Virus record (IMG/VR): IMGVR_UViG_2974586480_000001
DNA: 38,915 bases
Origin: a virus
Taxonomy: Duplodnaviria > Heunggongvirae > Uroviricota > Caudoviricetes
Direction: 5' to 3' (one strand)
The notes below the pieces were generated by a model. That model saw only the letters and a list, made by a program, of their open reading frames with translations, made no database searches and was not told the DNA's origin. Made by a program: the position numbers and the translations under genes. Shown here in pieces: positions 3,598 to 17,592 of this stretch (positions are counted from its first letter, which is position 1; the number at the start of each line of letters is the position of its first letter).

Positions 3598-5727
3598 ATG
3601 ACTCAAGTAGTTAAGCGTAATGGTTCCGTGGTGGATTTTGATATCCACCGCATCTCAGATGCAATTGAACGTGCAGTAGCCAGTATTGACGCTGTAATGA
3701 GTCAATCCCCAGAAGAAATCGCTAAAAAGTTAAGCGAAAAACTTTTACAGTATGATCAAATTACTGTAGATGAAATTCAAGTTTTAGTTGAAAATGAATT
3801 GATGTCGGTCAACAAAGAAGTTGCCCGTAAATACATCACTTACCGCTACGAAAGGGATAAATCTAGAATTGCCCATCAGGCATTTACTAGAGATATCAAT
3901 AACCTCGTTAGTCTAAAGGACAAATCAATAATCAATGAGAATGCAAACAAGGACGCCAAGGTGTTCCCTGTTCAGCGTGATCTTATGGCTGGTATTGTAT
4001 CAAAGCATTTTGCTAAGAATGGATACCTTCCAGAACATATTATTGAAGCTCATGAAAGTGGAGATATTCATTTCCATGATCTTGACTATAGTCCTTTCCT
4101 TCCGTTTACAAACTGTTGCCTAGTAGACTTAAAAGGTATGCTCAGTAATGGTTTCCGTCTTGGTAATGCAGAGATTGAATCTCCTCGATCTTTCGGTGTT
4201 GCATGTGCTGTAACTGCACAGATTGTTGCTCAAGTAGCTTCACACCAATATGGTGGGACTACTATTGCTAACATAGACCAAGTTCTTGAAGAGTACGTAG
4301 CTTCGTCTTGGACTAAACACTGGAACCGTGGAATGGAGTGGGAAGTTCCCGATGTTCAATCATATGCAGACTCTATGACTCAGAAAGAGATTTATGATGG
4401 TTGTCAGGCAATGGAGTATGAGATTAACACCCTCTTCACGACCAATGGACAACAACCTTTCGTAACATTCTCTTTCGGAATGGGTACTAGCAAATATTCT
4501 CGTTGGATTCAGGAAGCTATTCTGAAGGTTCGGATCAAGGGTCTTGGTAAAGAAGGTATCACACCTGTATTTCCAAAGCTAGTGATGTTCCTTGAAGAGG
4601 GTTTAAACCTCAAAGAGGGTGATCCAAATTATGACATTAAAAAGTTGGCACTTGAATGCTCAAGTAAACGACTCTATCCAGATATTATCTCAGCCAGAAT
4701 CAATCGCCAAATTACAGGAAGTCCTGTACCCGTATCTCCGATGGGATGCAGATCTTTTCTTGGGGGATGGCGAGATGCCGAGGGTTCTTATACCTTGGAT
4801 GGAAGAAACAACCTTGGGGTGGTATCAGTCAATTTACCTCGAATTGCCATTGAATCTGGTGGTAGTTTTGAGAAGTTCTGGAACATTCTCGACAGCAGGC
4901 TCGAACTGGTTAAAGATGCCTTGGAAGTCCGTATTGACAGACTTCGTGGAGTCAAAGCCTCGGTCGCACCCATTCTCTATACGGAAGGGGCTTTCGGTGT
5001 TAAACTCGACCCTGAAGATGAAATCATCAACCTGTTCAAATTTGGACGATCTTCAATCTCTCTTGGATACATTGGCCTTCACGAAGTAATGAAGGTTATG
5101 TTCCCAACAGTGGATCCAATATTTAATGAAGAGGCCCAAGATTTTTCACTAGCTGTCATCAGTTACATGAGAGAGCGTGTAAATCTCTGGAAAGAGAAAT
5201 CACCTGAGGGTTGGGGTTATAGTCTGTACTCAACACCATCCGAATCCCTCTGTGATCGATTCTGCCGGTTAGATGTTAAGAAGTTTGGTGAAATTAAAGG
5301 TGTTAATGACCGTGGTTGGTATACAAACTCCTTCCACTTAGATGTTAATTCCAAAGTTTCTCCTTTCGAAAAGATTGACTTCGAAGCACCATATCACTAT
5401 GTTGCAAGCGGTGGTCACATCTCCTATGTTGAATTCCCAGATATGAAGCACAATATAGAAGCTTTAGAAACTGTGTGGGATTATGCAATGAACAACCTTG
5501 CGTACTTCGGTACAAACCTCCCCAGTGATAAATGTTTTGAGTGTGGATTTGATGGAGAGTTTAGTGCAACCTCTAAAGGATTCGAATGCCCTAGTTGCGG
5601 TAATCACGATTCAAGTAAAATGAACACGATTCGTCGTGTATGTGGTTATCTTGGTGCCCCCTCGGCCCGAGGCTTCAATGAAGGAAAACAAGCTGAAGTC
5701 GTAAATAGGGTTAAGCATTTTAGCTAA
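3598..5727 (+). CDS. nrdD: Anaerobic class III ribonucleoside-triphosphate reductase with N-terminal ATP cone
   Basis: VVKRNG ATP cone, FTNCCLVD, PMGCRSFL, Zn-site CFECG/CPSCG, glycyl-radical RRVCGYLG. SD GGAGG upstream. Confidence 0.96.
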   Translation: MTQVVKRNGSVVDFDIHRISDAIERAVASIDAVMSQSPEEIAKKLSEKLLQYDQITVDEIQVLVENELMSVNKEVARKYITYRYERDKSRIAHQAFTRDINNLVSLKDKSIINENANKDAKVFPVQRDLMAGIVSKHFAKNGYLPEHIIEAHESGDIHFHDLDYSPFLPFTNCCLVDLKGMLSNGFRLGNAEIESPRSFGVACAVTAQIVAQVASHQYGGTTIANIDQVLEEYVASSWTKHWNRGMEWEVPDVQSYADSMTQKEIYDGCQAMEYEINTLFTTNGQQPFVTFSFGMGTSKYSRWIQEAILKVRIKGLGKEGITPVFPKLVMFLEEGLNLKEGDPNYDIKKLALECSSKRLYPDIISARINRQITGSPVPVSPMGCRSFLGGWRDAEGSYTLDGRNNLGVVSVNLPRIAIESGGSFEKFWNILDSRLELVKDALEVRIDRLRGVKASVAPILYTEGAFGVKLDPEDEIINLFKFGRSSISLGYIGLHEVMKVMFPTVDPIFNEEAQDFSLAVISYMRERVNLWKEKSPEGWGYSLYSTPSESLCDRFCRLDVKKFGEIKGVNDRGWYTNSFHLDVNSKVSPFEKIDFEAPYHYVASGGHISYVEFPDMKHNIEALETVWDYAMNNLAYFGTNLPSDKCFECGFDGEFSATSKGFECPSCGNHDSSKMNTIRRVCGYLGAPSARGFNEGKQAEVVNRVKHFS

Positions 5728-15271: not shown

Positions 15272-15462
15272 TGGAAAAAGCTTCTAAATTGTTCTACTGG
15301 CTAGTTATGCTGATTAACGTCGCACTGGTAATTGCGGTGGTGTACAGTTTTTTCAACCCTACCCTGATACCTCAAACAGTCGTATTACTGATACTGTCGT
15401 TCACACTGAATGAGTTCTTAGTGGAACGTCGTCTTCAAAAACTTGAAGAAAAGTTGAAATAA
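15268..15462 (+). CDS. Two-TM membrane protein, possible holin
   Basis: Two hydrophobic helices and a charged C-tail, directly after the endolysin. Holin function is inferred from position only. Confidence 0.4.
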   Translation: MMEKASKLFYWLVMLINVALVIAVVYSFFNPTLIPQTVVLLILSFTLNEFLVERRLQKLEEKLK

Positions 15463-15492
15463 TATGTAAGGTATCCTGGGTATCCTGACTAT

Positions 15493-15503
15493 TATAATGT
15501 ACA
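15493..15503 (+). promoter_or_regulatory. Candidate promoter for the tRNA array
   Basis: TATAAT at 15493-15498 overlapping TAATGTACA at 15495-15503. No consensus -35; preceded by tandem GGTATCCTG x2. Confidence 0.4.
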
Positions 15504-15606
15504 AGCAGAAAACGTCGCGTTGCATCGACGAATAGCCCCGTAAGGGCGTAGTGACACATACTACAGTTGTGTGGCAGTAGGAGAGACTACACTAGATTTC
15601 TTAGGT

Positions 15607-16075
15607 GTGACAGTAACTCAGTTGGTAGAGTCCCAGATTGTGATTCTGGTTTGCGCGAGTTCAAGGATGAGTATGAATATTAATAAAATAAAAGAAGAGC
15701 AGTTAAGAATGAACCCTGGGACTGCAAGTTATAGATTAGTAAAAGATGTATTATTTAAGTTTATATGTGACACAGGTAATAACAAATGCTACCATTGTGG
15801 TGAAGAAATGTCTCGTGAAGATTATTCAATAGAGCACAAAACACCTTGGCTTCATAGTGAAAACCCTGTTGATTTATTCTTTGATTTAGATAATATTTCT
15901 TTTAGCCACATGGGGTGTAATAGGAAAGCTGCTAGGAAAGCAGAAAAGCCTATAATTCATGGAGGTGTAAGGGGTTGGAGAAGAGGTTGTCGTTGTGAAA
16001 AATGCTTAGAAGCAAAAGCTGCTGAAAAGAGAGCTTATTCACAAAAGAAAAAGGCAACCCTCGTCTGTCACCCCT
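15607..16075 (+). tRNA. tRNA-His(GTG) interrupted in the T-loop by a 393-nt HNH-encoding insert
   Basis: 5' part 15607-15664: GTGACAG, D-arm, CCAGA-TTGTGAT-TCTGG, GCGAG-TTCAA. 3' part 16058-16074: CC-CTCGT-CTGTCAC-C-CC. Acceptor and T stems pair across the insert. Confidence 0.85.
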
Positions 16076-16077
16076 AA
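15667..16077 (+). CDS. HNH endonuclease inserted in tRNA-His
   Basis: CYHCG..SIEHKTPW..NISFSHMGCN HNH/Zn motif and C-terminal HG..GCRCEKC. ATG at 15667 or 15673; the last codons read through the tRNA 3' half. Confidence 0.8.
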   Translation: MSMNINKIKEEQLRMNPGTASYRLVKDVLFKFICDTGNNKCYHCGEEMSREDYSIEHKTPWLHSENPVDLFFDLDNISFSHMGCNRKAARKAEKPIIHGGVRGWRRGCRCEKCLEAKAAEKRAYSQKKKATLVCHP

Positions 16078-16087
16078 GAAATTTAAT

Positions 16088-16120
16088 GATGATGTAGCTC
16101 AGTTGGTTAGAGCAAAGAAT
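16088..16120 (+). pseudogene. Orphan tRNA 5' half (acceptor strand plus D-arm)
   Basis: GATGATG-TA-GCTC-AGTTGGTTA-GAGC-A then breaks off; no matching 3' half in the array. Confidence 0.65.
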
Positions 16121-16125
16121 AATTT

Positions 16126-16201
16126 GGGTGAGAAGCACATATGGATGTGCGGCAGACTGTTAATCTGATGGTAGAGAGTTCGAGCCTCTCCTTGCCCGCC
16201 A
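16126..16201 (+). tRNA. tRNA-Asn(GTT)
   Basis: GGGTGAG/CTTGCCC acceptor, CT-GTT-AA loop, TTCGAGC T-loop, CCA. Confidence 0.9.
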
Positions 16202-16216
16202 ATTTGAAGGTAATGA

Positions 16217-16527
16217 ATGTTCTGTAATAAACATGGAAAGATTACCCCAACAAAATCTGGCCGTTGTGGATCTTGTATGGTAGAGGCTGTTAAAAGCGTA
16301 GATACAAAATAAAACAGATGGCTGTGGATTATAAAGGTGGTAAATGTGAAAAGTGCGGGTATGATAAGTTCATAGGAGCTTTAGAATTCCACCACTTAAA
16401 CCCTGAACAAAAAGACTTTAGTTTAGGCGATAAGGGTTATACTCGTTCTTGGGATAAAATTAAAGATGAATTGGACAAATGCATTATGGTTTGTTCGAAT
16501 TGTCATAAAGAAATACATTATAGTTAA
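16217..16527 (+). pseudogene. HNH endonuclease with a one-base frameshift near 16292-16295
   Basis: Frame 1 gives MFCNKHGK..RCGSCMVEAVK with stop at 16310-16312. The -1 frame continues KRRYKIKQMAVDYKGGKCEKCGY..LEFHH..VCSNCHKEIH. Confidence 0.7.
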
Positions 16528-17426: not shown

Positions 17427-17501
17427 GGGAATGTAGCTGAAATGGATTAGTATCTGGTTGAAGCCCAGAAGATGTTGGATCGTTACCAACCATTCCCACC
17501 A
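17427..17501 (+). tRNA. tRNA-Phe(GAA)
   Basis: GGGAATG/CATTCCC, TCTGG-TTGAAGC-CCAGA, T-loop ATCGTTA, CCA. Confidence 0.88.
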
Positions 17502-17505
17502 ATTC

Positions 17506-17592
17506 GGATGTAATGAGCAATGTGGTTAGCTTCAGCGGTCTGTAAAACCGTGCTCTCAGGGCCTCTAGGTTCGATTCCTAGTACATCCACCA
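17506..17592 (+). tRNA. tRNA-Tyr(GTA)
   Basis: GGATGTA/TACATCC, CT-GTA-AA, long variable arm, CCA. Confidence 0.92.

Follow-up and report, generated by a model that had tools for sequence, protein, structure and literature searches.

The window, a stretch of 38,915 nt of viral DNA from an Aeromonas phage, very probably carries an intron-less HNH homing endonuclease gene within a dispensable tRNA gene, in the T-arm region recognised by SegB of phage T4. Endonuclease genes of phage tRNA clusters are known as neighbours of the tRNA genes, but the one in the window is inside an RNA gene and has no protective intron. Located at the T-arm region that SegB recognises, it also takes the end of its reading frame from the 3' end of the tRNA itself. 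The original prediction for this locus had left two readings open: a homing-endonuclease insertion that killed the tRNA recently, or else a tRNA intron that codes for protein, or a split tRNA, of a type not described before. Disruption of the tRNA by a homing endonuclease is the reading favoured by the existence of empty alleles, a family of free-standing HNH endonucleases in tRNA arrays, signs of purifying selection and more than one flank haplotype.

The two parts of the tRNA-His gene

The 5' fragment of the tRNA-His(GUG) gene is located at 15607-15664 (+ strand, as all the features described here) and covers tRNA positions 1-53 plus the T-loop residues TTCAA. It is composed, in this order, of the acceptor 5' strand (GTGACAG), U8 and A9, the D-arm, the anticodon arm (CCAGA-TTGTGAT-TCTGG), the variable loop (TTTGC), the T-stem 5' strand (GCGAG) and TTCAA, and it was assigned by its sequence, a partial Rfam match and its identity to the intact gene. 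The 3' fragment (16058-16074; CC-CTCGT-CTGTCAC-C-CC) consists of T-loop positions 59-60 (CC), the T-stem 3' strand (CTCGT), the acceptor 3' strand (CTGTCAC), the discriminator C73 and CC. From CTCGT on, this sequence is identical to that of Aeromonas phages LAh_6, LAh_8 and APT65, and it is directly followed by TAA.

The tRNA-His gene of the window as it stands is not called by ARAGORN, and Rfam only gives a partial match of 18.6 bits (gathering score 29) in which model positions 10-42 align to 15616-15649; neither program finds at this locus a contiguous cloverleaf matching tRNA models. When the insert is deleted in silico, ARAGORN calls a canonical tRNA-His(gtg) at 15607-16074, with a 7-nt T-loop, in 41 neighbouring deletion registers, as had been anticipated for the removal of 393 nt. 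Each part shows 100% identity with the unbroken tRNA-His gene of LAh_6 and LAh_8, which scores 57.9 bits with the Rfam tRNA model (gathering score 29), and for this reason their resemblance to tRNA-His is, on sequence grounds, a matter of homology and not of chance. The sequence, ARAGORN and the identity to LAh_6 and LAh_8 thus bear out every statement that the original prediction made about the sequence of the split gene. A second tRNA-His gene, whose absence had also been claimed, was not found by ARAGORN anywhere in the window.

The inserted segment and its empty alleles

Two-piece BLAST and MAFFT alignments against LAh_6 and LAh_8 place the inserted segment at 15663-16056, where 394 nt stand in place of G57. 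The sequence TTC-G-ACC of the empty allele becomes TTC-AAGG...GGCA-ACC in the window, which means a net gain of 393 nt and an A at position 57 of the interrupted allele. The boundary of the insert can be moved by up to 3 nt because of a local CAA repeat. The presence of CAA at both junctions, reported in the original prediction, is true of the window allele only; at the right junction, the LAh_9-type allele has GAGATC and the related contig L017 has GACAAG. Since the right junction differs in other alleles, the repeat was rejected as a target-site duplication.

An uninterrupted tRNA-His gene is present at the same place in the sister Aeromonas phages LAh_6, LAh_8 and APT65, so that the alignment with related phages proposed as a check did reveal the empty allele. 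The fourth empty genome is a 104-kb contig (depth 95) of run X2, in which 15662 is joined to 16057 with a G between them. Filled alleles are those of the window, L009 (an independent 104.7-kb Logan contig), LAh_9 and runs X1 and X5; the LAh_9 allele is known here from its GenBank protein P0122 and from a LAh_9-like contig of run X5. The window and LAh_6 differ at 3 of 1863 nt upstream and at 3 of 1843 nt downstream of the insert, a backbone identity above 99.8%. The HNH cassette is therefore a presence/absence polymorphism at one site of otherwise near-identical genomes. The unbroken state of the gene in the sister phages indicates an insertion and not a new kind of intron.

None of the sequencing runs listed as containing the sequence is recorded as RNA, and the four that were aligned to the locus gave contigs throughout that probably represent DNA. 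Protein-pattern scans of IMG/VR and the JGI metagenomes gave no relatives of the cassette, and an exact 35-nt word of the cassette gave zero matches in the same collections. Matches to a left-junction word in four unrelated GC-rich contigs (L013-L016) were discarded as chance. With respect to existing annotations, the LAh_9 protein in GenBank has been given a GTG start whose frame runs through the tRNA 5' half, and the LAh_6 "hypothetical protein 39" overlaps the tRNA-His gene.

The HNH endonuclease gene

The HNH homing-endonuclease gene (15673-16077; 134 aa) is assigned by its membership of PHROG 23251, its HNH residues, its predicted fold and its dN/dS, and its ORF occupies about 384 of the 394 nt of the insert. 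An alternative start, ATG 15667, would give a protein of 136 aa. The sequence AAGGA (15663-15667), placed 5 nt before ATG 15673, is by its spacing the likely Shine-Dalgarno of the gene; the corresponding sequence of L017 is AAGGTG. The tRNA-His 3' part is read in frame as the last five codons (LVCHP) and the stop TAA (16075-16077). All these elements, from the start codons after AAGGA to the read-through and the stop, agree with the first description of the locus. The native C-terminal tail of the ORF has been replaced by the tRNA-derived LVCHP, and relatives end otherwise, for instance in ...YERTGK. A scan for promoters and terminators around the locus, on the + strand, gave nothing that exceeded the shuffled expectation.

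The window protein matches PHROG 23251 ("HNH endonuclease") with an E-value of 7e-48 and has 126 homologues. The Pfam HNH family (PF01844) is matched by 29 of 40 sampled family members, the window protein alone being below the Pfam threshold. The residues that are invariant in a 40-member alignment (C39, C42, H55, N74, H79, C82 and N83) are all present in the window protein, which by this alignment has the catalytic HNH motif and the zinc-binding Cys/His residues. Its AlphaFold2 model has a pLDDT of 93, and the best PDB folds for this predicted model are HNH nucleases, although the match is weak (E 6e-3); a sequence-profile search of the PDB with the window protein gave nothing meaningful.

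The comparison of the window cassette with that of L017 gives a dN/dS of 0.14 and a dS of about 0.5. The LAh_9-like contig of run X5 differs from the window cassette at 29 positions, of which 21 are third codon positions. Judged by these substitution patterns, the HNH ORF is maintained by purifying selection. By its dS, the cassette lineage is old, although the window copy sits on a fresh backbone. In contrast to the recent killing of the tRNA supposed in the original prediction, the origin of the interruption need not be recent.

Intron tests and the possible function of a split tRNA

One alternative, which we regard as improbable, is that the interrupted gene is still functional. Either the insert would be excised and the ends sealed, for example by a phage Rnl2-like ligase, or a 58-nt and a 17-nt piece would form a two-piece tRNA held together by the acceptor and T stems. 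Both parts are indeed complete and able to pair, their joining in silico gives a canonical tRNA-His, and the window, L009, LAh_9 and runs X1 and X5 all retain the interrupted allele. The phage group, as seen in LAh_6, possesses a T4 Rnl2-type RNA ligase (PF09414 and PF18043), which makes RNA joining mechanistically conceivable; however, LAh_6 carries the empty allele, so the ligase is not tied to the split gene. There is also a precedent for function being kept in an endonuclease-split gene: in Aeromonas phage Aeh1, the intron-less HNH gene mobE splits nrdA in two, as the cassette does with its own host gene, and the protein fragments reassemble and are functional (PMC3045599). The split gene of the window, in contrast, is an RNA gene, and a two-piece tRNA-His would be the RNA counterpart of the mobE-split nrdA, the Aeh1 "genes in pieces" reductase. 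If a functional split tRNA were real, it would represent the first case of a bacterial-virus tRNA interrupted outside the anticodon loop by a sequence that codes for protein and is not a ribozyme.

The content of the insert argues against this possibility. An Rfam scan of 15300-16500 at E-values up to 10 found no group I or group II intron family, in agreement with the original prediction, in which no group I core had been seen. The group I catalytic core (P3-P8) is not detected by the covariance model, and the ORF is so extensive that a ribozyme core would not fit. Among the four equivalent registers of the junction, one (TT/CAAGG...AAGG/CAACC) does have a U before the 5' splice site and a G as the last intron base, but no core accompanies them and they may be due to chance. 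The group II domain V/VI has no match in Rfam, and the ORF encodes a 134-aa HNH nuclease and not a protein of the reverse-transcriptase type. No tRNA-like RNA was matched inside 15665-16057 at E-values up to 10. The insert opens with a Shine-Dalgarno and an ATG, ends inside the ORF and is located in the T-loop.

Structure prediction points in the same direction. The two tRNA halves are not paired in the predicted fold, whose z-score (-1.68) is unremarkable, and neither the MFE nor the centroid fold contains the helix between the two junctions that a bulge-helix-bulge would require. To our knowledge, Aeromonas, the host genus of the sister phages, does not possess the splicing endonuclease EndA. 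The T-loop belongs to the architectural core of the tRNA, and we know of no bacterial or phage example of a T-loop intron.

Both halves are intact in three alleles, those of the window and L009 at the DNA level and that of LAh_9 in protein translation only. A functional split tRNA would look the same, but homing into a target that does not vary explains these intact halves. Even the empty alleles of distant relatives show almost no variation in the tRNA-His gene, and the flanks would be reset by homing, so that testing the halves for conservation is without power. L017, a single 982-nt contig from one run, shows the order tRNA-Thr, HNH gene, 15 nt of the tRNA-His 3' part and tRNA-Asn. It lacks tRNA-His positions 1-53 and conserves 18 nt (CTC...TAA) identical to those of the window. 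Since the 3' fragment remains unchanged in L017 without a 5' part, its conservation needs no tRNA function, and intact halves are not evidence of such a function. T-loop positions 59-60, moreover, vary between alleles (CC, TC or AG). Decay of the halves in relatives had been named beforehand as the sign of a mere disrupted pseudogene; L017 comes close to it, the 5' part being lost, but its 3' part has not decayed.

Relatives of the cassette and flank haplotypes

Fifteen other copies of homologues were located in 14 other loci of Felixounavirus, Pectobacterium, Pseudomonas and Vibrio phages, APT65 and metagenomes. Most of them are within tRNA arrays, and in all those cases they lie between complete tRNA genes. 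When splices were tried by brute force with ARAGORN, a split tRNA came out for none of these 15 copies, but solely for the window and for L009, its near-twin. The tRNA-Trp matches that this test gave in L018 and L020 were rejected as artefacts, caused by an odd contiguous tRNA-like gene wholly on one side of the endonuclease. An undescribed protein-coding intron or split tRNA, the second reading of the original prediction, thus finds no support: neither a ribozyme nor a tRNA-like RNA was detected in the insert, the halves are unpaired in the predicted fold, the other copies split no tRNA and L017 has lost the 5' part.

It could also be thought that the endonuclease gene is old and immobile, either domesticated or decaying, and is vertically inherited inside a dead tRNA gene, which we consider about as improbable. 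The loss of its native C-terminal tail is compatible with this idea, and the frameshift found in a neighbouring HNH gene of the window indicates that such genes decay here. However, the low dN/dS and the preservation of every catalytic and zinc-binding residue speak for a maintained enzyme, and presence/absence on so similar a backbone speaks against an immobile one. The distribution of cassettes among flanks is also adverse. The window-type cassette is found on a LAh_6-like flank (window and L009) and, in a low-depth metagenome contig of run X1 with LAh_8-type SNPs at 16107-16125, on a LAh_8-like right flank. The LAh_9-type cassette, 7% diverged, lies on a LAh_8-like flank in another low-depth metagenome contig (run X5), LAh_8 itself being empty. 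One cassette on two kinds of flank, and two cassette types on one kind of flank, make vertical descent alone insufficient, and these diverged cassettes on differing flank haplotypes fit repeated homing.

An artefact of assembly, or a chimera, as the cause of the interruption in this sequence can practically be discarded, given that L009 has the same junctions with 1 nt of difference, LAh_9 P0122 reads across both junctions, and the right junction is covered by contigs of runs X1 and X5.

Proposed mechanism and comparison with known systems

In the homing-endonuclease reading, a mobile HNH gene sits directly in the T-loop of tRNA-His, without a surrounding intron. When a relative co-infects, the enzyme would cut its uninterrupted tRNA-His DNA in the T-arm or close to it, and repair templated by the endonuclease-bearing genome would copy the cassette in. 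The interrupted allele would be immune to cutting because the target sequence is gone. The interrupted gene would no longer yield a normal tRNA-His, the insertion having most likely inactivated it, as far as can be told from sequence, and the phage would tolerate this loss thanks to the host's own supply of that tRNA. The tRNA 3' part has been taken over by the endonuclease ORF as its final five codons and stop. The halves would look pristine because the target from which each copy recently descends was intact and is highly conserved. Different stages of invasion and decay may thus be represented among these genomes: empty (LAh_6, LAh_8 and APT65), filled with both halves (window, L009 and LAh_9) and without the 5' part (L017). 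Cultured pairs, such as LAh_6 or LAh_8 versus LAh_9, are suitable for tests of homing and of the dispensability of phage tRNAs.

Group I introns of bacterial and phage tRNA genes occupy the anticodon loop, possess a ribozyme core and in some cases carry endonuclease ORFs. The window likewise presents a tRNA gene interrupted by an endonuclease-carrying element, but the interruption lies in the T-loop, without a detectable core, and the insert is filled by the ORF. Archaeal non-canonical tRNA introns and split tRNAs do interrupt regions outside the anticodon loop, including the T-arm (PMC4090602). However, they need a bulge-helix-bulge and a splicing endonuclease of archaeal or eukaryal kind (PMC4090602), whereas the host in the present case is a gamma-proteobacterium and the fold lacks this motif.

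A close parallel is found among free-standing nucleases of phage tRNA clusters, such as SegB and the T5 enzymes F-TflI, -II and -IV. SegB is a homing endonuclease of the T4 tRNA cluster that recognises a T-psi-C stem-loop motif and cuts the 3' ends of tRNA genes (PMC2330249). Its recognition region is where the present cassette sits, and it shares with the proposed mechanism the repair of a double-strand break from the endonuclease-bearing genome. However, the SegB and T5 genes lie between tRNA genes and leave them intact, while the cassette of the window is within a tRNA gene whose 3' end it uses as the end of its ORF. Besides, SegB is a GIY-YIG enzyme and that of the window is an HNH enzyme.

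The enzymes of PHROG 23251 from Felixounavirus, Pectobacterium, Pseudomonas and other phages, such as the "HNH homing endonuclease" of Salmonella phage BPS17W1 and Escherichia phage Andreotti, share with the window protein 50-65% amino acid identity, the same length, and the HNH and G-CRC-x2-C motifs. Their genes are usually in a tRNA array, on the same strand as the tRNAs. In contrast to the window gene, the members examined are free-standing, have their own C-terminal tails, and end a few nucleotides before the next tRNA or overlap its first bases. Within this family, the fusion to a tRNA-His fragment is restricted to the LVCHP lineage (window, L009, LAh_9 and L017).

The neighbouring tRNA array

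Downstream of the split gene, a remnant 5' end of another tRNA (16087-16113; acceptor GATGATG and D-arm) is fused upstream of the working tRNA-Asn. It aligns with the start of the complete tRNA-Asn of L017 and is present in LAh_6 and LAh_8 but not in APT65; this alignment shows an earlier loss of a tRNA in the array. The next intact gene of the array is tRNA-Asn(GUU) (16126-16201), called by ARAGORN and scoring 47.3 bits in Rfam. It is followed by the second HNH gene (16217-16527; Pfam HNH, E 2.8e-6), which is free-standing and unrelated to the cassette. This gene is present in LAh_6 and L009 and absent from LAh_8, and in the window it is broken by a 1-nt deletion within an A-run.

Phages LAh6 and LAh8 have been reported to possess 21 tRNAs each and LAh9, a carrier of the cassette, 18, a lower count for which no explanation was given (PMC7033617). 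The split tRNA-His gene accounts for one of the three tRNAs that are missing in LAh9.

Structure of the interrupted tRNA-His gene

The tRNA-His(GUG) gene of the window lies in two parts. The first 58 nt (15607-15664) comprise the acceptor strand GTGACAG, U8 and A9, the D-arm, the GTG anticodon arm, the variable loop, the T-stem strand GCGAG and TTCAA, and the 3' part (16058-16074) consists of CC, CTCGT (T-stem), CTGTCAC (acceptor), the discriminator C, and CC. No tRNA-His is found among the 18 tRNAs called by ARAGORN in the window, and the Rfam tRNA match to the 5' part is partial (18.6 bits, model positions 10-42). The original prediction, a tRNA-His gene split in its T-loop by a 393-nt insert carrying an HNH gene, was confirmed by a splice test in which all deletions with 92 starts and 150 ends around the open reading frame (ORF) were each passed through ARAGORN: a tRNA-His(gtg) spanning 15607-16074 was recovered in 41 neighbouring deletion registers.

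On either side of the insert, the window shares 99.9% identity with Aeromonas phage LAh_6 and about 98% with LAh_8 (genus Lahexavirus), and the match of each phage to the window consists of two abutting pieces. The empty allele sought in related phages does exist, since LAh_6, LAh_8 and the more distant APT65 carry an uninterrupted tRNA-His gene at the corresponding place (57.9 bits against the Rfam tRNA model, gathering score 29). The joined form, with G, is also present in a 104-kb contig of depth 95 from the public sequencing run X2. In the alignment, the T-loop TTC-G-ACC of the empty allele corresponds to TTC-AAGG...GGCA-ACC in the window. Thus, the single base G57 is replaced by 394 nt (15663-16056), a net gain of 393 nt, and an A stands in place of G57 in all filled alleles. 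Outside the insert, the window differs from LAh_6 at 3 of 1863 nt upstream and 3 of 1843 nt downstream; between these two genomes the insert is a clean presence/absence polymorphism. The CAA repeat described at the two junctions is present in the window allele but specific to it, as other alleles differ at the junction.

Immediately before position 1 (15606), the tRNA-His gene has T instead of G, likewise in empty alleles (1807 in the LAh_6 record L001 and 1507 in another record, L003). The gene therefore has C73 but does not encode the G-1:C73 pair, which is the chief determinant of HisRS identity in bacteria.

The HNH protein and its family

The insert is almost throughout one ORF, with an ATG at 15673 behind AAGGA (ATG 15667 being an alternative start) and a TAA stop at 16075-16077. 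The window protein alone has no match in Pfam, but it matches PHROG 23251 'HNH endonuclease' (E 7e-48) and has 126 homologues at E < 1e-5. In an alignment of 40 members, 29 of which match Pfam HNH (PF01844), the invariant columns are C39, C42, H55, N74, H79, C82 and N83, alongside a nearly invariant G-CRC-x2-C motif; all these residues and the motif are retained in the window protein. The best PDB matches of its AlphaFold2 model (mean pLDDT 93) are HNH nucleases, namely the Gme HNH nicking endonuclease 4h9d, Cas9 HNH domains and GVE2 HNH, although they are weak (E 6e-3 at best).

Homologues of 50-65% identity are present in Felixounavirus, in phages of Pectobacterium (Arno18, DU_PP_I) and Pseudomonas (KoPa-4, ventosus), in Vibrio PJN101, Escherichia SD2 and APT65, and in metagenomic contigs. 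Most of them lie within tRNA arrays, on the same strand as the tRNAs and flanked by complete tRNA genes, and their ends often lie a few nt ahead of the following tRNA or within its first bases. Applied to 15 further copies of the gene, in 14 other loci, the splice test yielded nothing beyond sporadic chimeras and two artefacts; the family is thus one of free-standing endonucleases of tRNA arrays. The location inside a tRNA gene is limited to the lineage studied here, the rest of the family being free-standing. Family members have their own, differing C-terminal tails, and the LVCHP tail is a replacement created by insertion into tRNA-His.

The two artefacts, apparent split tRNA-Trp genes, were odd but contiguous tRNA-Trp-like genes. 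A contiguous tRNA-Trp(CCA)-like gene lies beside the HNH homologue in Pectobacterium phage DU_PP_I (L018, 703-781) and in Escherichia phage SD2 (L020, 1211-1286); both have an unusual D region and are not called by ARAGORN in the native sequence.

Distribution and evolution of the cassette

The nearest filled allele, in the 104.7-kb Logan contig L009, covers both junctions and differs from the window by 1 nt over 570 nt. LAh_9 encodes a 168-aa protein (P0122, GenBank) annotated as 'putative HNH homing endonuclease', which has an upstream GTG start, reads through the tRNA 5' part, shares the left junction of the window (…SSRM…) and ends in …KKREILVCHP. Two low-depth metagenome contigs also carry the cassette. 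The one from run X5 (93% identity over 15678-16205) has a right junction encoding the exact LAh_9 tail; that from run X1 has a window-type cassette, differing once in the HNH gene over 15817-16057, and four LAh_8-type SNPs in its right flank (16107-16125). Therefore, the LAh_8-type right flank occurs in three states, empty (LAh_8), with a window-type cassette (X1) and with an LAh_9-type cassette (X5), and the window-type cassette is also found on an LAh_6-type backbone. Between the window cassette and the diverged Logan contig L017, dN/dS is 0.14 (dS about 0.5), and 21 of the 29 differences of X5 are at third codon positions. Judged from these codon comparisons, the cassette is under purifying selection; this and the cassette/flank combinations form the picture expected of a homing endonuclease gene that is active and moves among co-infecting relatives.

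Published tRNA counts are 21 for LAh6, 21 for LAh8 and 18 for LAh9, the lower LAh9 count being left without explanation (PMC7033617). They agree with LAh9 no longer having a recognisable tRNA-His.

The first 32 residues of P0122 are the translated upstream spacer and tRNA-His 5' part, an annotation issue, and LAh_6 gp061 'hypothetical protein 39' (L001 1768-1905) is an ORF atop the tRNA-His gene in a record lacking tRNA annotation. In the X1 contig (15817-16141, depth 4.1), the CCCC run after 16070 is one C longer. A genuine insertion would place the endonuclease stop seven codons further downstream and change the tRNA 3' end, but this may be a sequencing error.

Fate of the tRNA halves

The 982-nt contig L017, whose HNH protein (P0123) is 89% identical, contains in order a complete tRNA-Thr with CCA end, ATTTCAAAGGTGTGT, the HNH ATG and gene, CTCGTCTGTCACCCC, the TAA and a complete tRNA-Asn. 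The tRNA order at the corresponding place in APT65 is Thr-His-Asn. In L017, tRNA-His positions 1-53 are lost and only the T-loop TTCAA and the 3' 15 nt are left; nevertheless, the final 18 nt, stop included, match the window exactly despite 50 differences in 405 nt between the cassettes. Since the 3' fragment is unchanged where the 5' part is missing, its conservation needs no functional tRNA; the fragment now terminates the endonuclease ORF and borders the repair homology. The two T-loop bases before CTCGT are CC in the window, TC in LAh_9 and X5, and AG in L017.

Among empty alleles the tRNA-His gene hardly varies, even when Lahexavirus is compared with APT65, and the backbone around the window copy is practically that of LAh_6. 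A cassette that repeatedly moves into intact targets would always have fresh, perfect halves on its two sides; intact halves are thus expected and uninformative about tRNA function, and L017 is the outcome when a cassette copy stays put.

It is very improbable that the tRNA-His still functions as a split or spliced tRNA, the second alternative of the original prediction. The interrupted allele persists in several phages, and this phage group has a T4 Rnl2-type RNA ligase (PF09414 and PF18043 in LAh_6), but this ligase is present in empty-allele phages too. Moreover, no Rfam family, group I and group II introns included, matches the insert at E up to 10, so that neither ribozyme nor tRNA-shaped shell was found; the two tRNA parts are unpaired in the predicted fold of 15607-16077, which is unremarkable (z -1.68); the interruption lies in the T-loop; and L017 has lost the 5' part. 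On present evidence, this is not a new intron class. The first alternative, a homing-endonuclease insertion disrupting the tRNA, most probably explains the finding: empty alleles exist, the protein belongs to an HNH family, its ORF is under selection, and the cassette occurs in several combinations with flanks. The locus, a natural and experimentally tractable example, is a tRNA-array homing endonuclease gene inside the T-loop of tRNA-His, with the tRNA 3' end serving as ORF end.

The LAh_6 ligase lies at 24348-25271 of L028 (74348-75271 of the LAh_6 record, outside the window; PF09414 E 1.5e-19, PF18043 E 1e-7), and LAh_6 also encodes a calcineurin-like phosphoesterase. Together they may represent an RNA-repair capacity of the phage group.

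Proposed mechanism and precedents

The HNH enzyme would cut uninterrupted tRNA-His DNA at or near the T-arm, and repair using the filled genome as template would bring the cassette in. The filled allele would be immune because its target site is split; in addition, every filled allele has A at position 57 in place of G. The closest precedent of such putative T-arm cutting is T4 SegB, whose 27-bp recognition site includes the conserved T-psi-C stem-loop motif GGTTCRANTCC and which cuts the 3' ends of tRNA genes (PMC2330249). However, the genes of T4 SegB and T5 F-Tfl lie between tRNA genes, whereas the window HNH gene lies inside one. In this respect it resembles mobE of Aeromonas phage Aeh1, an intron-less HNH gene within another gene, which splits nrdA into fragments that reassemble (PMC3045599).

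Other changes in the tRNA array

Directly upstream of a working tRNA-Asn (16126-16201) there is a 27-nt tRNA 5'-end remnant (16087-16113; acceptor GATGATG and D-arm), which aligns to the start of a complete, different tRNA-Asn in L017. LAh_6 and LAh_8 share this remnant, which APT65 lacks; it resembles the relic of an earlier tRNA truncation or replacement in the array.

A second, unrelated HNH gene (16217-16527; Pfam HNH, PHROG 2255) reads as one uninterrupted ORF of 103 aa in both LAh_6 and L009. The window version lacks 1 nt of an A-run near 16292, which divides it into 31 and 69 aa, and a G-to-A change converts HHLD to HHLN; the break reflects either decay of the endonuclease gene or a sequencing error in the homopolymer. 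LAh_8 lacks this gene and has tRNA-Gly directly after tRNA-Asn.

In L009, the tRNA-Phe/tRNA-Tyr stretch (4169-4747; window 17427-17565) is 77% similar, with no tRNA-Phe called by ARAGORN, and a 129-aa PD-(D/E)XK_5 (PF11645) nuclease gene lies between tRNA-Tyr and tRNA-Glu. This stretch is another nuclease-associated rearrangement of the array.
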